In this document: positions 19,931-29,209 of the stretch, piece after piece
Numbering within the stretch: position 1 is the stretch's first letter
Layout of the letters: each line of letters starts with the position of its first letter
Sequence record: PP763259.1
Source: Acinetobacter phage Ab15
DNA length: 64,000 nucleotides
Reading direction: 5' to 3' (one strand)
The notes under the pieces: model-generated
The model's database searches: none
Told to the model about the DNA's origin: nothing
Seen by the model: only the letters and a program-made list of their open reading frames with translations
Position numbers and translations under genes: made by a program

Positions 19931-21175
19931 ATGGAACAACTTGTTTTAAATATTAATAAAGTCCCTGTTGTGGAAGCATCTCAATTTAAATACTCAGACC
20001 ATATTTTTGTTTCAGTTAATGGTCAATTTAAAAGAATGAAAAGAACTGATCTCATTACCTTATTGAGTGCTGATGTTAAGGGTGAAAAAGGTGAGAGAGG
20101 TCCGATTGGTTTACAAGGTAGGACTGGAGCTACAGGTGCAACTGGTGCCACAGGAGCTACAGGTGCAACTGGAGATAAAGGCGATAAGGGAGATCGTGGA
20201 GATCGTGGTTTCCGAGGATGGTCACCAGTCTTCAAATCAGTGGCTGAAGATGGTTCTATTTACCTATACTTAAGTGATTGGGTTGGTGGTGAAAATACAA
20301 AACCTGATGTTCTAGGTTATATCTCACCTACAGGGATTGTAAACTATATCACTGAGGGCGCAACTGCAATCAACACTGACTTTGCACCACAAATCAATGA
20401 CCTTCAAGCAAATAAACTAGACGTTGGCTCTACAACTAGTGCTATCCCTGAAGGTTCAAACTTGTATTATACAGATGCAAGAGTTCGTGATGTAATCCTT
20501 ACAGATCTCTCTACAGCGACCTCTACAGCTATTGTAGCGACAGATACTGTATTAAGTGCATTTGGCAAGGCACAGGCTCAACTTAACCTTAAACAGAACA
20601 GTTCAAGCTTAGGAACAGATGTACAAGCTACAGTTCTATCTACTTACACCGTTGGTGGTAATACAGAAATTGCCAACACTGACACCATAGCAGCAGCTTT
20701 TGGTAAAGCTCAAGGGCAAATTAATGCTAGACAACTTTCAGCCAATCTTTCATCTGATGTTCAGGCTTTAGTACTTTCAGGTTATGTTGTTGGTTCTAAC
20801 ACAGCTTTAGCCAATACAGATACTTTCATTGCTGCTCTTGGCAAGTTGCAAGGTCAGATCAATGCCAGAGAGGTAGCTGCCAATGTACCAGCAGATGTTA
20901 GGGCAACAGTTCTTACAGGTCTTTCTACAGCAAGTTCTACAGCAATTACTGCTACAGATACTGTCTTGTCAGCCTTCGGGAAATTACAAGCCCAAGTCAA
21001 CTTGAAACAAGACTCATCTACCCTAGCTGCAAATGTAAGATCAACAACCCTTACAGGTTTCTCTGCTACACCAAACTCAGCAGTAGTTGCAGCAGACACT
21101 ATATTGGCAGCAATAGGAAAATTACAGGCTCAAGTTGATAGTTTATCTTCTAGAGTAACAGCACTAGGAGGATAA
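19931..21175 (+). CDS. collagen-like tail fiber protein with internal ~42-aa repeats
   Basis: Gly-X-Y run GEKGERGPIGLQGRTGATGATGATGATGATGDKGDKGDRGDRGFRG (nt 20081..20218). C-terminal 2/3 consists of at least 5 divergent repeats ...TDTVLSAFGKAQAQLNLKQ... Confidence 0.6.
   Translation: MEQLVLNINKVPVVEASQFKYSDHIFVSVNGQFKRMKRTDLITLLSADVKGEKGERGPIGLQGRTGATGATGATGATGATGDKGDKGDRGDRGFRGWSPVFKSVAEDGSIYLYLSDWVGGENTKPDVLGYISPTGIVNYITEGATAINTDFAPQINDLQANKLDVGSTTSAIPEGSNLYYTDARVRDVILTDLSTATSTAIVATDTVLSAFGKAQAQLNLKQNSSSLGTDVQATVLSTYTVGGNTEIANTDTIAAAFGKAQGQINARQLSANLSSDVQALVLSGYVVGSNTALANTDTFIAALGKLQGQINAREVAANVPADVRATVLTGLSTASSTAITATDTVLSAFGKLQAQVNLKQDSSTLAANVRSTTLTGFSATPNSAVVAADTILAAIGKLQAQVDSLSSRVTALGG
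20081..20218 (+). repeat. 9-bp (GGn-GCn-ACn) collagen-like tandem repeat inside tail fiber gene
   Basis: ggtgcaactggtgccacaggagctacaggtgcaactgga... encoding (G-A-T)n and G-D-K / G-D-R triplets. Confidence 0.7.
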
Positions 21176-22465: not shown

Positions 22466-22747
22466 ATGGCTGATGTTTTAGTATCAGGTATCAAAATTTC
22501 AGAAATGGAATTAGTTAACGATGTAACAGGCGCTGAGAAAGTACCTACAGATCAAACAGGTGATAAAGCTATTAATATTGACCAGATATTAGCTTATGTT
22601 AATAGTAAGGTTAAACCTGTTTGGGGAAACATTCAAGGTGATATTGATCAGCAAACTGACTTGATTGACATCATAACTGCTCAAAATGCCACATTGATAA
22701 ATGAAATTGAACAGCTTAAACTTAGAGTTACACAACTAGAAACTTAA
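22466..22747 (+). CDS. hypothetical protein with C-terminal coiled coil
   Basis: 93-aa ORF, RBS aaggagag upstream. Last gene of the plus-strand late block. Confidence 0.4.
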   Translation: MADVLVSGIKISEMELVNDVTGAEKVPTDQTGDKAINIDQILAYVNSKVKPVWGNIQGDIDQQTDLIDIITAQNATLINEIEQLKLRVTQLET

Positions 22748-22751
22748 AAAG

Positions 22752-22784
22752 AAACCCCTGAAGGAATTCCTTCAGGGGTTTTTC
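22752..22784. terminator. bidirectional intrinsic terminator (aaacccctgaagg aatt ccttcaggggttt)
   Basis: 13-bp perfect palindrome around an EcoRI-like AATT centre. Flanked by A-run on the left and T-run on the right. Sits between convergent genes. Confidence 0.8.
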
Positions 22785-22804: not shown

Positions 22805-25576
22805 TTATTGACAGTTATCACATTCTTCATGTCGCTTAATATCACCAGATCCCCTCATAGAGTAGATGTAGTATAAAGCTAAGATACCTGCATTTTCCAA
22901 AGCATATTTGTGAACCTTCATAATATACTCTGGAGTGTCATTACTTGTAAAATACAAGTTGATTGACTGTTGCTGATCAATATATTGTTGTCGTTGTGCA
23001 CACAAATCCAAATGTTTGATCATGTCAATCTCAAAGGCAGTTCTAAAGACATCCTTCTCATGCTGAGTCAACCAGTGAACATGTTGTACAGAACCTTTAT
23101 GCTTATTGATGTCATTGATTACGTCTTCATTGTAAACACCACGTTCCTTCATGATCTCTAGAAGGACCTTATTAACCCTCCAGATATCTCCTCCAGCACT
23201 CTGCTTAACGAACACCATAGCAACATCTAAACCAATACCTTCAGAAGCACCAGCCATAATCTCTGCTGTTGACTTTGTAGGTGGCATCATCATCGTTGTT
23301 GCATTACGGATTCCTAAATGAGCGCACCCTTCAGGCATACCAACTTCACGAGCCAACCACTTAGAAGCAGCTAAGGTTTGATCTCTCATACCCTTAAAGA
23401 TTTCTTCATTTAACCAGAAGCTCTCAAGGCTACCTACCACAATTCTACGTTTTTGTAGTAGTGTGTGGAAACCTAATACACCTGTACCAACTGCACGGAA
23501 TCTCTTGGTGAAGGCTAAGATTTTTCTAAATGCCAAGGCATCCTCTTTACCTTGCTTAGTTCGGTTTTCCATAAACTCGATGTAGTCACTCACATTACAA
23601 TCTTGCATTACATGTGCAATAAATGCTAAGTGAGGACATCTCGATTTCCACTCATCGTATAAGTCAAGGTTCAAGTTCAGAATTACACAAGAGAATGTAT
23701 GCTTCTCATCACTACCAAGTAACACTTCTTGGCAATTCATAGTATTCAAACCATTGAACATCAACATGTTACGTTTTGGCTCAAGTGCACAATATGTATC
23801 ATCAAATCTTCCTTGGTCGATCACTTCATCAACACATACAAATCTTTCAGCAGAACGTTGAGGTTTTCTTTCACTCCATTTTAGGCGGTGTGTTTTTAAA
23901 CCTAACTGACTCAACTTAAAGAGACCTGTACTCGATACAAGAAGACGATAAGCATCTTGGCATTCAAACAGTCCTTTATCACCCGTACCATTATTGAGAG
24001 GTAATTCTTTTAGACCACCTACATCCCTCAAGACAACCTTTGAAGAAACACCAAGTGTTTGTAACATCAATTGCACATCTTGTAAGAATGTCTTGTGAAT
24101 GCTTACCACTTGGATAGATTCATTTTCACCATTACGAGCAATAGTTCCATCTGAATCTAGGAGTCCAGCAAACCATTCCAATCGGCTTTCAACAGTGTAC
24201 TCAGATGTTGGTACAAAGAATTTATCCTTAAGTCCTTCACTGTGAGTAAGCTTAATACGATCACCACCTTGAAGTCCTGACACTGAAGAAACGCAAGTTA
24301 TATTTTCAAGTAACTCCTTCTTCTTACCATACAAGTATGTGTGTTTTTTACCTTTGTATTCAAAACCATCACCAGTGAAGAATCCATTAGTGTAAGCATG
24401 TTCGAGGGTCTTGTCACCTAAAATAACTGGTAGATCAAATTTAGATAGTCGATCACCAGACTTCAACTCGTAGGCACGTTTAATGACCTCATTGCCATCC
24501 TCACCAACAACCTTAAAGCGGTGATACTCTGTGCAATCTAATTCATACCCTGAATCAGTTACCACTTTAACTAACTTCTGATTTTCACCAGTTTTGATAA
24601 TTGTCACTTCAGACCATTCAAAACCATTCCACACCTCGACCTGTTGTCCCTCAAGGTCAGAAATCGTTTGATATCCACTTTTAGTTAAGATTAATGTCTC
24701 AGGTGAAACACACAAATTAGAAGCTTTCGCTGTCATACCTGCATCTTTAAATGCCTGAGCTAAGTGGCGGTTCATTTCATCAATCTTAGTGAAGTAACCC
24801 TTACCACGTTGCATCTTGATAGCAATAGCTTTAGCTAATAGGGCAACTGCTTCTGGGTCATCCTTGACTAACTTCTCAATGTACTCGTCCTTACATAACC
24901 ATGCTGGGTTATTACTTTCAGGTCGTTTGAATAAGTACTTTAAAACTTCCTCAAACTCGGGATGTTCAATACTTACAGCATAAGATAAACTACCTCTACG
25001 GCTACCTTGAACAACCTCATCCATACAGTTGATTAAGTCACGGATAAGAGGCATAACCCCACCACTGTAACCACCACGAGGTAGTTTCTTACCTTTATAG
25101 GCCCAATCATCAATTGAGTAAGATGTACCATGTGAGTGCTTAGTTAGGATAGCTGCTTCAGTCACACAATCATAACGAGAGAACAAGTCATCACCAACAT
25201 AACCGCTAGCACAACTTACTGTTGATCCCCTTTCAGGTAAACCACTGTTCGCCAATAAAGGAGTTGAACAAGACACATAACCATCCCAAAGTACGTCAAA
25301 AAACACCTCCTCCCAAGTTTTACCAGCCGTATAAGTATCCACATTCCACCAAGAAGGGTACTTATCTGGTGCATGTTTAGCTAAAGTCTTAGCAATCATT
25401 TTATAGCGAGCTTTTACAGTCTCACCATTCCACGAATACTTTTCAAAGAACAACTGAGTCCCACCAGTGGTAAACCATTTAGGGATCTCTCCATGTTCTT
25501 GTAGTTTTTTTCGAAGTTGACTGTAACTGTCAACCCCGTATAATTCCAATGTCTCTAAATAAGATAAAACAGCCAC
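22805..25576 (-). CDS. nrdA: ribonucleotide reductase large subunit (class I NrdA-like) interrupted by an intein
   Basis: Extein motifs VSCSTPLLANSG, SNL-[intein]-CQEVLL...FSCVILNLNL match the NrdA SNLCxEI...LCxLxxxNL active-site region. Mature extein length about 597 aa, no ATP cone. Confidence 0.8.
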   Translation of the reverse strand: MAVLSYLETLELYGVDSYSQLRKKLQEHGEIPKWFTTGGTQLFFEKYSWNGETVKARYKMIAKTLAKHAPDKYPSWWNVDTYTAGKTWEEVFFDVLWDGYVSCSTPLLANSGLPERGSTVSCASGYVGDDLFSRYDCVTEAAILTKHSHGTSYSIDDWAYKGKKLPRGGYSGGVMPLIRDLINCMDEVVQGSRRGSLSYAVSIEHPEFEEVLKYLFKRPESNNPAWLCKDEYIEKLVKDDPEAVALLAKAIAIKMQRGKGYFTKIDEMNRHLAQAFKDAGMTAKASNLCVSPETLILTKSGYQTISDLEGQQVEVWNGFEWSEVTIIKTGENQKLVKVVTDSGYELDCTEYHRFKVVGEDGNEVIKRAYELKSGDRLSKFDLPVILGDKTLEHAYTNGFFTGDGFEYKGKKHTYLYGKKKELLENITCVSSVSGLQGGDRIKLTHSEGLKDKFFVPTSEYTVESRLEWFAGLLDSDGTIARNGENESIQVVSIHKTFLQDVQLMLQTLGVSSKVVLRDVGGLKELPLNNGTGDKGLFECQDAYRLLVSSTGLFKLSQLGLKTHRLKWSERKPQRSAERFVCVDEVIDQGRFDDTYCALEPKRNMLMFNGLNTMNCQEVLLGSDEKHTFSCVILNLNLDLYDEWKSRCPHLAFIAHVMQDCNVSDYIEFMENRTKQGKEDALAFRKILAFTKRFRAVGTGVLGFHTLLQKRRIVVGSLESFWLNEEIFKGMRDQTLAASKWLAREVGMPEGCAHLGIRNATTMMMPPTKSTAEIMAGASEGIGLDVAMVFVKQSAGGDIWRVNKVLLEIMKERGVYNEDVINDINKHKGSVQHVHWLTQHEKDVFRTAFEIDMIKHLDLCAQRQQYIDQQQSINLYFTSNDTPEYIMKVHKYALENAGILALYYIYSMRGSGDIKRHEECDNCQ
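23735..24712 (-). mobile_element. intein (326 aa) with LAGLIDADG homing-endonuclease domain inside nrdA
   Basis: Begins CVSPETLILTKSGYQ (block A). LAGLIDADG-type motifs NGFFTGDGF and LEWFAGLLDSDGTI. Ends ...MLMFNGLNTMN followed by +1 Cys, which is the catalytic Cys of the NLC(x)E motif. Penultimate His replaced by Met. Confidence 0.8.
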
Positions 25577-25586
25577 AAATACCTCC

Positions 25587-26150
25587 TTACTTACTTCCTT
25601 GTAATCCTTTATTCTCTTCTGAATCTTCCATGATCAGCTTCAAGAGTTCTTCTTGTTCCTCTTGTTCTTTCTTCCTCATATTATTCCAAGCTTCTACAAA
25701 CATAGCCTCAGACCAGTTACTTTCATACTCTCGGTTTTGACCCTTAGTGAAGAAATCTGGCATCTGGTAACCGTATGTATTTAAGTTAAACATCTTAGCC
25801 ACTTTAGAATCCTTCTGAGTAACTTGAAACTCTTTAGGGATTTTATCTACAGGAACCTGCAAACGAGTCAAGAAAGTAAAGATTCGGAAGCGCACAAAAT
25901 CAATGTACTCGGCTGTTGTATACCCATTAAGTGAACCTGAAGGGATTGCCATATCAATGATTCGCTTCTCATGCTCTAACACGTAGTGGCAAGCTTGTAG
26001 TAACTTTCCAAACATTTCTTCATGCTCATGTAGAGGTTTCCCTACTTCATGGAAATAGGTGTTAAAATGTTCTGCGGCGTAAATTCCATGCAACATGGGT
26101 TGTTCAGGTGTGCTCGTTACACACACCCCGTAGAGTACTTCACCACTCAA
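25587..26150 (-). CDS. nrdB: ribonucleotide reductase small subunit, C-terminal exon (exon 2)
   Basis: 187-aa ORF with no ATG at its 5' end (track start is TTG). In-frame stop 13 codons upstream. Continues the ferritin-like fold begun in 26539..27306. Confidence 0.65.
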   Translation of the reverse strand: MSGEVLYGVCVTSTPEQPMLHGIYAAEHFNTYFHEVGKPLHEHEEMFGKLLQACHYVLEHEKRIIDMAIPSGSLNGYTTAEYIDFVRFRIFTFLTRLQVPVDKIPKEFQVTQKDSKVAKMFNLNTYGYQMPDFFTKGQNREYESNWSEAMFVEAWNNMRKKEQEEQEELLKLIMEDSEENKGLQGSK

Positions 26151-26538
26151 GTACTCACAGCTTACACTTTCATGTAAGATCAGACTATATCATCACCACA
26201 AGGTTTTACTTGTTGTGGTGCTTCCCACTTCGGTCTTACTTAAGACCTACTCCCCGAAGGGATAGTCGTTGAGGATTCTAAACCTAATTCCAACCACAAA
26301 GCTTTCCAACGTTTTTTATGCCTAATTAACGAAACATATCTAATGTATCCAGAAAATTTTGGATGTTTAAATTTTTCCATAATTACCTCCATAATAAGAG
26401 GTTGGAATTAGGTTTAGCTTTCCTGCTGATTGCCCAATACTTTAGATTTTTACTCAGTGTTTAAATTTTTCAACACTTCAGTACTAAAGTCTCTAAGGGG
26501 TTTCCAGCATTTCAAGAAGTTTATTGAGGACTTGCAAA
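26151..26538 (-). ncRNA. group I self-splicing intron (ORF-less) in nrdB; boundaries approximate to within 40 nt
   Basis: Minus-strand RNA contains R-like element CAACGACUAUC (fwd 26261..26271) and S-like element GAUAUAGUCUG (fwd 26181..26191), able to form P7 (GACUA/UAGUC). Also a CCCUUCGGGG tetraloop hairpin, a GGUCUUAAGUAAGACC hairpin, and a P9-like CUUACA-UGAAAG-UGUAAG hairpin just before exon 2. No ORF of 60 aa or more on either strand. Confidence 0.65.
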
Positions 26539-27306
26539 TTAATCCTCATCTAGTGCACTCTGGTTAGCAATTTGGGCAATAACTTTAATTAAGTTAAAAC
26601 CATTTGTCTGGAAGCTCTTAAGGATAGCAAAACTAGAGAACAACAAAGCTGTCTCTGTTAAAGAGAAGCACAAGCATGCAAGCATCTTGTTTTCATCTCG
26701 CATTAAACCATCTAACCATTCCATACGTTCATTGAGTACAGGGTCATCAATGTATGATGTGTAGTAATCATCAGTATCTAGTCCAAGTACAATGTTAATC
26801 TCATTGTACGTTCGTGCATGGACCATCAACTCAATCATTGCTAAAGCAGAAGCACCAGCACGGGATTCATGTCGAGGGAATACTTTAATGAATAATCCAT
26901 TCCAGAATTCATCACCAACAATTAATTCATACTGTAAGAATAAGTGTAGAACTGTTTTTACTGCATGTAGTTGCTCTTTAGTTAGCACATACTCAAGTTC
27001 CATCTGGTCATTCTTGACTTCCATTTCACTCTTAAACCACATCTGCTCTTCAAGCTGCTGGTCAGCAATCTCAAGAATCTTTGGGTACTTAATCTCATAG
27101 CCACTATTGGGTGATGTAATACGGGTTTGCACTAATCCAGTTTTCTCTGAATTTAATGTTTTGTTTATTGTCACATAAACGAATTTCCCTTCAGGGTTTT
27201 TCTCATCCTTGACATTGATGATAACCTTTCCAGCCGGTGGTGGTAAAAATCTAATCTTCTCAACCTGACCTTCGGTTAAATCCACCTCAATATTAATTTT
27301 AGACAT
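26539..27306 (-). CDS. nrdB: ribonucleotide reductase small subunit, N-terminal exon (exon 1; stop codon lies just inside intron)
   Basis: Contains di-iron/tyrosyl-radical region ...SALAMIELMVHARTYNEI... (Ex2H + Tyr register of NrdB) and ...CLCFSLTETALLFSSF... (second Glu ligand helix). ORF ends where the NrdB helix with the RDExxH ligands should follow. Confidence 0.7.
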   Translation of the reverse strand: MSKINIEVDLTEGQVEKIRFLPPPAGKVIINVKDEKNPEGKFVYVTINKTLNSEKTGLVQTRITSPNSGYEIKYPKILEIADQQLEEQMWFKSEMEVKNDQMELEYVLTKEQLHAVKTVLHLFLQYELIVGDEFWNGLFIKVFPRHESRAGASALAMIELMVHARTYNEINIVLGLDTDDYYTSYIDDPVLNERMEWLDGLMRDENKMLACLCFSLTETALLFSSFAILKSFQTNGFNLIKVIAQIANQSALDED

Positions 27307-27862: not shown

Positions 27863-28287
27863 ATAGTCTCCTTATGAATTGTTTACATAATATGTAGGGA
27901 TGTTATCTGGCACCTCTACAAGTTGAAGGTATTGTAGTATGAATTAAATTTATAAAACACCCCACACCTTTAGAAATTCTTAAAAGTTTACCTTGTTTGG
28001 TTGTTTGTTAAACACAACACAAAATAAAGGTAGAACCTAGAGGTTATCTTTAAATTTGTCACTAGGGGAAATCCTTCAGGGAATAAAAAAGGGCACCACC
28101 TTGAAGTAGTGCCCTAAAAAGTACCCTAGGGAATATTAATATATTAACCCCTGAGGAAAATTTTTTAAGTATCCTCTTATATTTATAGTACCCCAAAAAG
28201 TCATTTTGTCAAGCTAAAACCATGCCAATTAATCATTGGAAATTTCGATTAAAAATTAAATATTAGTAAATTCTGTAAAAAATACAT

Positions 28288-28307
28288 CAGACCGATTTGA
28301 TCAAATG
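28288..28307. promoter_or_regulatory. 20-bp direct repeat copy 1 (cagaccgatttgatcaaatg) containing palindrome ATTTGATCAAAT
   Basis: Identical copy at 28351..28370. Internal 12-bp perfect palindrome with central GATC. Confidence 0.6.
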
Positions 28308-28350
28308 CATTTTTTAAAAGTGAAAATAACCAGTTCAAAATGGTTTTAAC

Positions 28351-28370
28351 CAGACCGATTTGATCAAATG
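28351..28370. promoter_or_regulatory. 20-bp direct repeat copy 2 (operator/iteron candidate)
   Basis: Perfect repeat of 28288..28307, 63 bp centre-to-centre. Lies 47 bp upstream of the TTGACA at 28417. Confidence 0.6.
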
Positions 28371-28416
28371 TTCTAATAAGGTAATAAATAGGGTTTTAAA
28401 TATGTTTCTTTTTAAG

Positions 28417-28443
28417 TTGACAGAGAAAAAATTTTTTTATAAA
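28417..28443 (+). promoter_or_regulatory. sigma70-like promoter (TTGACA, 15-nt spacer, TATAAA) for 28493 gene
   Basis: gTTGACAgagaaaaaattttttTATAAAg, 50 bp upstream of the ATG. Confidence 0.45.
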
Positions 28444-28492
28444 GTTATCCACATCCAAAGATGGTTGATTGGTATAAGTAAGGAGAATTTTT

Positions 28493-29209
28493 ATGTTTAA
28501 AGGTTTTTTAACAGATGTAGCAAAAGAAGCTGGTGTTGGTCCTGCAATTCTTTTAAATCAGTTGCACCAATGGGTTAAGTCTACTGGAAACCAGAAGATT
28601 TACCGTTCTAATGCTCAATTATCTGAAGACCTTGATGGAGTTCTTTCAGTAGCAGCTATTCAACGTCATAAGGTAAAACTGATTGAATGTGGATACATTA
28701 TCGTTTCTCACGATAAAGGAACTATTCGTACTACTACTTACCAATTAACTGAGAAAGCTTTGAAATCTTTAGGTGCTTTCTTTGACAAAGCTAAAGACAA
28801 AGTTAAACAAGCCTTCCAACCTAAAAAACCTAAACAACAAGTTCCAGCACAACCTAAAGAGGAACCAGTAAAGCAAAGCACTGAGAAACCAACCTCTATG
28901 GAAGAAGAGTTTAAGAAAGCTGGTCAAGAACGTAAGGACCTCCCTAGAGGTTGCCCTAAAGAACTTCTTAAAGGTATCTTTATGAGTGCTAAGAAAGAAG
29001 AGGAAAAACAAGAAGATGTTGTTTATGAGGACAATTCTGAAGAGTTATTTGGAAAGAAATTCGAAAGTGAAGACTTGAGTGATGAAGAAATCTTTGATAA
29101 AATGAGTAAAACTCTTGGTGGTTTATTTAAGACTATCCCTAATGTGGATAAAAGAAATTCAAACCTTCAATCTATGACTAACTTTGGTAACTTTCGAGAA
29201 GAGTACTAA
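28493..29209 (+). CDS. putative winged-helix DNA-binding protein (replication initiator/early regulator candidate) with acidic/Lys-rich C-terminal half
   Basis: N-terminal 90 aa look like a wHTH fold (…KIYRSNAQLSEDLDGVLSVAAIQRHKVKLIECGYIIVSHDKG…). Positioned right after the repeat-containing control region. C-terminus low complexity. Confidence 0.35.
   Translation: MFKGFLTDVAKEAGVGPAILLNQLHQWVKSTGNQKIYRSNAQLSEDLDGVLSVAAIQRHKVKLIECGYIIVSHDKGTIRTTTYQLTEKALKSLGAFFDKAKDKVKQAFQPKKPKQQVPAQPKEEPVKQSTEKPTSMEEEFKKAGQERKDLPRGCPKELLKGIFMSAKKEEEKQEDVVYEDNSEELFGKKFESEDLSDEEIFDKMSKTLGGLFKTIPNVDKRNSNLQSMTNFGNFREEY

Follow-up and report, generated by a model that had tools for sequence, protein, structure and literature searches.

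In class I and class II ribonucleotide reductases (RNRs), the point directly before the cysteine that bears the thiyl radical is the most frequent location of contiguous inteins (PMC2677866), and a homologue in Vibrio phage ICP1, a LAGLIDADG protein, has been annotated and described as encoded by an intein that splices out of NrdA (PMC10448857). Here, we analysed a stretch of 64,000 nucleotides (nt) from Acinetobacter phage Ab15 (sequence record PP763259.1; this whole stretch is called the window, and positions are counted from its first letter), in which nrdA, the gene of the RNR alpha subunit, carries an in-frame insert of 326 amino acids (aa) directly before the codon of the thiyl-radical Cys. 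This insert is very probably a class 1 intein with a double-motif LAGLIDADG homing endonuclease, for which we infer both protein splicing and DNA cleavage.

The most similar described inteins are those of ICP1 (NrdA, with the LAGLIDADG protein gp203), the Rheinheimera Barba phages, Pectobacterium phage phiTE and Vibrio phages PG07, eugene and helene, which occupy the same SNL/C site (a slash marks an insertion point or splice junction). These ICP1-type inteins share about 52–55% identity with the Acinetobacter intein over residues 1–324, are also about 326 aa long, and likewise lack a penultimate His while displaying the splicing blocks, two LAGLIDADG motifs and a Cys at block position F:4. 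They differ by their ending, which reads ...FNGILTGQ/C (Gly-Gln) as opposed to ...FNGLNTMN/C (Met-Asn) in the window, and, unlike theirs, the Acinetobacter host gene encodes a short class Id-like alpha subunit. The SPbeta-type bnrdE intein of Bacillus phages also lies at an FSNL/C site and ends with ...FNGIVTGN/C (Gly at G:6, then Asn), but it is far more distant (about 25% identity), is about 385 aa long and has Asp at F:4. Among solved structures, the best matches by sequence (expectation value (E) 1.6e-4) and by fold are PI-PfuI (the RNR intein of Pyrococcus furiosus, 1dq3) and PI-SceI/TliVMA, with which the insert shares the HINT plus double-motif LAGLIDADG architecture at 12–18% identity. 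These inteins are larger, possess added DNA-recognition regions and end with the canonical His-Asn pair.

Atypical C-termini have been described elsewhere. The ‘glutamine-type’ RNR intein of Chilo iridescent virus, which resembles the present one by its published description as having an atypical C-terminus, splices efficiently with its native Gln (PMC4031507; PMC549080), and better than with Asn (PMC4031507); the Acinetobacter intein has the canonical Asn. Mycobacteriophage inteins (e.g. the Bethlehem gp51 recombination directionality factor intein, with a penultimate Gly) are, like this one, phage class 1 inteins with no penultimate His. Those with Gly, Lys or Ser at G:6 splice completely, and a restored His slows splicing (PMC5050341). 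However, they reside in other host proteins, show no detectable close homology to the insert, and Met is not among the G:6 residues reported for them (PMC5050341).

The insert and its natural empty site

The interrupted gene is an open reading frame (ORF) of 2772 nt on the minus strand (22805..25576), present in the ORF list and recognized by Pfam and NCBIfam, which encodes a 923-aa precursor comprising the RNR alpha subunit and the intein. Its product matches Pfam Ribonuc_red_lgC (E 3.8e-50) together with Ribonuc_red_lgN (all-alpha and barrel), and NCBIfam NrdE-prime is its top family; nrdB adjoins the gene. The source is an Acinetobacter baumannii phage of the Herod/YMC13-03-R2096/AM24 group: nrdA is 98.6% identical to that of Acinetobacter phage Herod, and 94.7–97.3% identical to those of YMC13/03/R2096, P577, Bestia and AM24.

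Within this ORF, the insert spans 978 nt (23735..24712, minus strand; CVSPETL...NGLNTMN, precursor residues 289–614), as delimited by presence and absence relative to phage Mithridates, by domains, by fold and by homologues. The N-extein (24713..25576, minus strand; 288 aa, ending ...AKASNL) is colinear with codons 1–288 of Mithridates nrdA, and the C-extein (22805..23734, minus strand; 309 aa plus stop, starting CQEVLLGS) is defined by codon reading and by alignment to the same gene. Both junctions, ...AKASNL/CVSPETL... and ...MFNGLNTMN/CQEVLL..., are in frame. On the minus strand, the codons AAT TTG (Asn-Leu) stand just before TGT (Cys1, 24710–24712), and ACT (Thr), ATG (Met) and AAT (the last Asn, 23735–23737) are followed by TGC, CAA and GAA. 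A natural empty site is provided by Mithridates (MW316731), whose 1794-nt nrdA is colinear with both exteins at 95% identity and lacks exactly these 978 nt, the junction reading AAT TTG/TGT CAG.

Removal of the insert in silico yields a 597-aa protein with the stretch AKASNLCQEVLLGS. Among solved structures, this protein is closest to two short alpha subunits of class Id RNRs, 6dqw and 6dqx (E 4.3e-71 for 6dqw), and its ‘asnlcqev’ pairs residue by residue with their ‘asnlcsei’. This is the NxCxE finger loop, which is known to carry the thiyl-radical Cys. By the alignment with 6dqw, the TGC codon at 23732..23734 (minus strand) specifies both the C-extein nucleophile (+1) and the thiyl-radical Cys of NLCQE. 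With its active-site loop divided by the intein, the precursor would be inactive as a reductase, and splicing would therefore be needed for RNR function.

Most of an earlier sequence-only reading of this DNA is borne out by these data. Codon reading on the minus strand reproduces its coordinates and residues exactly, and the domains, the fold, the residues and the empty site all agree with the LAGLIDADG intein that it proposed. Likewise, the SNL/C-QE junction and the 6dqw alignment place the insert where that reading had put it, directly N-terminal to a catalytic Cys that doubles as the +1 nucleophile, and the predicted restoration of an NLC(x)E motif upon removal of 326 residues is found in the spliced product. 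The search for empty sites in related phages that it had suggested returned the Mithridates allele, and the suggested comparison with intein hidden Markov models returned TIGR01445 (intein_Nterm) above its cut-off.

The sequence-only reading had also named what would speak against it, namely that the segment is a normal RNR insertion domain. This alternative fails because a natural intein-less allele exists, and the predicted HINT/LAGLIDADG fold likewise rules out an ordinary insertion domain. A lineage-specific structural insertion of the alpha subunit that is not removable would account for the in-frame placement and for nothing else; with a sister phage whose exteins are 95% identical and which is exactly devoid of the insert, a HINT plus LAGLIDADG fold, and an NxCxE active-site loop split in two, we give it virtually no credence.

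As for the host protein itself, no ATP-cone domain was detected in the spliced alpha subunit, which is closest to class Id (6dqw/6dqx) and to NrdE-prime; its label in public records is class Ia (NrdZ for Mithridates). The GenBank record of YMC13/03/R2096 already marks intein N-terminal and LAGLIDADG domains in this protein.

Splicing domain

The NCBIfam model intein_Nterm (TIGR01445) matches intein residues 1–66 with 36.6 bits, for a cut-off of 24.5. The structure predicted by AlphaFold2 from 21 aligned sequences (predicted local distance difference test score 92.8; predicted template-modelling score 0.91) has as its top PDB matches in Foldseek the homing-endonuclease inteins TliVMA (7qsu, E 4.6e-14), PI-SceI and PI-PfuI, ahead of I-DmoI, an endonuclease with two motifs, and of mini-inteins such as 6frg and 6riy; a HINT fold is present in this predicted model. 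Altogether, the evidence for an intein exceeds chance by far.

The residues of class 1 splicing are all there, i.e. Cys1, Thr61, His64, Asn326 and the +1 Cys. On the minus strand, block A, which holds the Cys1 nucleophile (CVSPETLILTKSG; 24674..24712), was delineated from the family alignment and TIGR01445, and block B (GYELDCTEYHRFKV; 24509..24550) from the family alignment, with Thr61 at B:7, His64 at B:10 and Phe66 at B:12. The same alignment places block F (FDDTYCALEPKRNMLMF) at 23756..23806, with Cys308 at F:4 and Asn315 at F:13, the positions being numbered backwards from the C-terminal Asn in the manner of published inteins. Finally, block G (NGLNTMN; 23735..23755) has Thr at G:5, Met at G:6 and Asn at G:7, and is identical in all six intein-bearing Acinetobacter phages (the window, Herod, YMC13/03/R2096, P577, Bestia and AM24). 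The penultimate residue is thus Met325 and not the typical His.

The pair formed by Cys308 (F:4) and Thr324 (G:5) evokes a non-canonical, class 3-like route, in which these two residues would supply the branch-point nucleophile and which would explain the missing histidines. Indeed, F:4 is Cys throughout the family save in the distant SPbeta-like intein (Asp), G:5 is usually Thr, and one mini-intein relative (P0029) has Trp at B:12 and hence a full Trp-Cys-Thr triplet. Yet the class 3 definition requires the absence of an N-terminal nucleophile (PMC4031507; PMC5050341), and Cys1 is conserved in every relative; moreover, Cys is the second commonest F:4 residue in inteins generally (PMC4031507). 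The insert is not a class 3 intein by this definition, since it retains Cys1 and matches only two members of the Trp(B:12)-Cys(F:4)-Thr(G:5) triplet, B:12 being Phe66, and a class 3-like route to splicing appears highly improbable.

An intein family without the penultimate His

At E ≤ 1e-3, a large protein database contained 31 homologues of the insert, all within RNR alpha genes. Related inteins occur in 336 phage records, several of which are already annotated as inteins; they include Vibrio ICP1, 115 Rheinheimera phages, Pectobacterium phiTE, and phiCbK-like Caulobacter, Corynebacterium and SPbeta-like Bacillus phages. The relatives P0001–P0012 are 40–60% identical to the insert across 98–100% of its length, and the signature TYC..EP..FNG, which includes Cys F:4 and the FNG of block G, is conserved. 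The insertion point was NL/C (NP/C in class II-like hosts) wherever the N-terminal junction was read, some partial database proteins ending short of it. The insert belongs to this allelic family of RNR alpha inteins at the thiyl-radical Cys (ICP1/SPbeta-like/Gly-Gln type).

Outside the Acinetobacter phages, the C-terminal junction was surveyed in 40 relatives, of which 17 were database proteins, 13 phages and 10 IMG/VR contigs, a sample that took in ICP1, SPbeta-like and Caulobacter phages as well as giant-virus and metagenome sequences. A penultimate His was found in none of them: at G:6, 38 have Gly, one has Ala and one Ser, and at G:7, 29 have Gln and the other 11 Asn. Most relatives are of the Gly-Gln type, including those located in eukaryote- or giant-virus-like RNRs (GTIKSSNL/C). 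A lineage-specific loss of the penultimate His is consequently ruled out, as all 40 relatives also lack it. This agrees with the literature, in which some 5% of the functional inteins carry a residue other than His at G:6 without leaving the class 1 pathway, and in which neither His F:13 nor His G:6 is obligatory in all inteins (PMC4031507); among phage class 1 inteins, the penultimate His is poorly conserved (Kelley et al.; PMC5050341). The absence of this His had been correctly noted from the sequence (Met325; ...NTMN/C in six phages), whereas the accompanying statement that such inteins splice by altered mechanisms was overstated: published inteins (PMC4031507; PMC5050341) and the 40 relatives point to the usual class 1 steps, assisted by other residues. 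From the sequences compared, both flagged features, the site and the missing penultimate His, are ordinary for the family.

Only the ending itself, along with Asn at F:13, is specific to the clade. The last four residues are N-T-M-N, versus L-T-G-Q or L-T-G-N in the family, and ...NTMN/C is as invariant as the rest of block G in the six Acinetobacter phages. With Asn at F:13, both helper histidines are missing in the clade, as they are in ICP1-like relatives (Gly at F:13). Since the closest relatives (55–60% identity) all end with Gly-Gln, the Met-Asn ending is probably derived within the family. Its origin as a compensated frameshift of ILTGQ into LNTMN was considered and rejected, a codon-level comparison showing no such pattern. 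A scan of IMG/VR for further Met-Asn members or empty sites returned only YMC13/03/R2096 and distant Gly-Gln or Gly-Asn relatives, and no paper specifically describing the Acinetobacter phage intein was present in the literature library searched.

A more far-reaching reading is that the clade has rebuilt its C-terminal splice junction (Asn-Thr-Met-Asn), which, if splicing is efficient, would represent a natural case of Asn cyclisation with neither helper His and with a bulky Met beside the scissile bond. Catalysis might then come from the family-specific Cys F:4 or from RNR active-site residues of the C-extein (Cys+1, Gln+2, Glu+3), and the proximity of Cys1, Cys308 and Cys+1 might also couple splicing to redox state. 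We hold this reading to be decidedly doubtful.

Endonuclease domain and probable recent mobility

The presumed class 1 intein contains a LAGLIDADG homing-endonuclease domain at about residues 100–290 (23843..24415, minus strand), identified by Pfam LAGLIDADG_3 (E 1.9e-11) and by Foldseek. Both motifs announced by the sequence-only reading are present on this strand: the first, YTNGFFTGDGF (residues 107–117, with Asp115; 24362..24394), aligns with ‘wlagfiagdgc’ of PI-PfuI, and the second, WFAGLLDSDGTI (residues 180–191, with Asp188; 24140..24175), with ‘iaGLfDaeGhv’ of the same intein, such that the acidic residues of the two (TNGFFTGDG and FAGLLDSDG) line up with those of PI-PfuI. In the family alignment, D186 is invariant and D188/G189 nearly so. 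The structural match to I-DmoI (E about 1e-5; template-modelling score normalised to the target about 0.55) is accompanied by matches to the endonuclease domains of PI-SceI and PI-PfuI, and the predicted model displays the alpha-beta-beta-alpha-beta-beta-alpha pseudo-dimer fold. Elsewhere in the family, two mini-intein relatives of about 140 aa (P0028 and P0029) have lost the domain, and P0025 (232 aa) retains a degraded one; such a range of full-length, degraded and mini relatives would fit the usual invasion–decay cycle of inteins.

Divergence was compared among the six intein-bearing phages. Between them, 0.2–1.1% of nucleotides differ in the intein versus 1.8–7.6% in the exteins, and synonymous divergence (pS) amounts to 0.009–0.024 versus 0.067–0.30, i.e. 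it is about 10-fold lower in the intein (Fisher p down to 3e-17, for the window versus AM24). Purifying selection cannot cut synonymous divergence ten-fold, and the contrast therefore points to horizontal spread across nrdA alleles that had already diverged. From these alignments, the intein appears to have spread horizontally and recently, which fits homing. The junctions themselves carry related traces: the C-extein starts with TGC CAA in all intein-bearing alleles versus TGT CAG in the empty Mithridates allele, and Bestia and AM24 display 7 silent changes within the last 21 nt of the N-extein, in an otherwise identical stretch of 100 nt, as would be expected if a short donor flank had been co-converted in a separate event. 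No stop codon and no frameshift was found in the six intein copies. The earlier suggestion of a potentially active homing element is thus strengthened by the pS contrast and by the junction tracts.

Counter-evidence and alternatives

A number of observations weigh against a mobile, splicing-competent intein. Concerning mobility, the ratio of non-synonymous to synonymous divergence (pN/pS) of the intein is 0.2–0.8 (2–11 differences per pair), mostly above the 0.02–0.09 of the exteins, which fits relaxed constraint; for the Herod/YMC13 pair it is 0, the difference consisting of two synonymous sites only. In addition, the low divergence could in principle stem from ordinary recombination instead of endonuclease-driven homing. 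Splicing might be normal and the endonuclease no longer active, the distribution of six intein-bearing phages versus one empty phage resulting from vertical inheritance with ordinary recombination or precise loss. A pN/pS that reaches 0.8, albeit over few sites, is in line with this explanation, as are the degraded and mini relatives, which indicate that endonuclease decay is common in the family. Vertical inheritance, however, cannot yield a roughly 10-fold lower synonymous divergence of the intein within the same genomes; besides, short donor-type tracts adjoin both junctions, and the two catalytic Asp as well as the near-invariant residues of the endonuclease domain are intact. An inactive endonuclease is, in our view, unlikely.

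Concerning splicing, the Pfam model Intein_splicing scores 27.3 bits, under its gathering score of 35.8, and the NCBIfam/Pfam scan of the insert gave no match to an intein_Cterm model, which is expected because the ending is atypical. Three of the last four residues of block G differ from the consensus of the family (ILTGQ to LNTMN), and Met at G:6 occurs in none of the 40 relatives, so that impaired C-terminal cleavage is possible. Since phage RNR is often dispensable (T4 nrdA is an example cited in PMC3037004), phage viability is no proof of splicing, and no published splicing or cleavage experiment was found for this intein or for any member with a Met-Asn ending. A splicing-defective or cleavage-only intein, produced by drift of block G (Met at G:6, Asn at G:4, no His at F:13), would accommodate both this unique, unmatched ending and a dispensable reductase: nrdA would be dead and the host RNR used in its place. 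It is harder to reconcile with an intact 2772-nt ORF and an invariant block G in all six phages, which were isolated in Korea and Russia, with the retention of all three nucleophiles (Cys1, Asn326 and Cys+1), and with relatives that lack both histidines yet are widespread and kept in frame. Moreover, a mycobacteriophage intein with a penultimate Gly splices completely (PMC5050341). The low pN/pS of the exteins (0.02–0.09) argues in the same direction, although most of the extein divergence is older than the spread of the intein and selection after the invasion is not separable from it. Loss of splicing is accordingly regarded as very unlikely.

Proposed splicing and homing

If the insert is indeed a class 1 intein, the 923-aa precursor would be translated first, by analogy with the family. 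Cys1 would then undergo an N-S acyl shift to a thioester, assisted by Thr61 and His64 of block B, and the N-extein would be transferred by trans-thioesterification to the +1 Cys, the future catalytic Cys of the reductase. Cyclisation of Asn326 would free the intein with neither of the usual helper histidines (Met at G:6, Asn at F:13). Many relatives are similarly devoid of both, and the family, to judge from their sequences, has evidently solved Asn cyclisation in another way. Finally, an S-N shift would rebuild the SNL-CQE finger loop and leave an active RNR alpha subunit of 597 aa. During mixed infection, the free 37-kDa intein, or the precursor, would cut an intein-less nrdA such as that of Mithridates (AAT TTG/TGT CAG), and repair from an intein-bearing genome would copy the intein together with a few flanking bases.

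Neighbouring features

The adjoining nrdB gene is interrupted as well. On the minus strand, its exons (26542..27306 and 25587..26093) are separated by a group I intron of 448 nt with no ORF (26094..26541; Rfam RF00028, 54.9 bits for a gathering score of 50); T is the last letter of the upstream exon and G that of the intron. The intron lies between codons 255 and 256, in ...SALDED/LHGIYAAEH, a stretch that resembles the E-x-x-H metal-ligand motif of R2. The spliced NrdB beta subunit of 423 aa is longer by about 70 residues at its N-terminus and ends with an acidic tail rich in Glu, neither of which matched any Pfam family. The intron is absent from Mithridates, Bestia and AM24, lacks an ORF in the window and Herod, and in YMC13/03/R2096 and P577 contains an ORF for an HNH endonuclease. 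A single phage group therefore shows, independently of the intein, all three stages of an intron life cycle.

A free-standing gene for an HNH homing endonuclease lies upstream of the nrd operon in Herod (L002, 9319..9927) and Bestia (L004, 7506..) and is absent from Mithridates; it is apparently missing from the window too, which is colinear with Mithridates over about 27900..28700. This gene represents another mobile-element polymorphism within the same 10 kb.

At the other end of nrdA, a perfect 13-bp GC-rich hairpin (AAACCCCTGAAGG AATT CCTTCAGGGGTTT; 22752..22781), followed by a T run, lies between a convergent ORF (22466..22747, plus strand) and the end of nrdA (minus strand). It is probably a terminator, and weak Rfam ‘His_leader’ matches on both strands at this place most likely reflect the palindrome itself. 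Further away, a putative tail-fibre ORF (19931..21175, plus strand) contains a collagen-like Gly-X-Y run (GERGPIGLQGRTGATGATGATGATGATGDKGDKGDRGDRG), after which a unit of 30–40 aa is repeated roughly six times (...TDT.LSAFGK.QAQ.N.KQ...).

Significance

In GenBank, the nrdA product of these therapeutic-candidate A. baumannii phages mostly stands as a 923-aa ‘class Ia’ reductase with the intein unmarked, and nrdB is split into two or three fragments in four records because the intron is unmarked; the mature proteins would be a class Id-like alpha subunit of 597 aa and a beta subunit of 423 aa. The intein itself would be one more allele of a well-populated phage family at the best-known RNR intein site, and carries little weight for basic biology. 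For intein engineers, its Met-Asn ending may be of use as a natural block G variant, comparable with the Gly-Gln relatives. Moreover, these near-isogenic sequenced phages, with Mithridates empty and six others intein-bearing, could serve as a natural pair for the study of homing.

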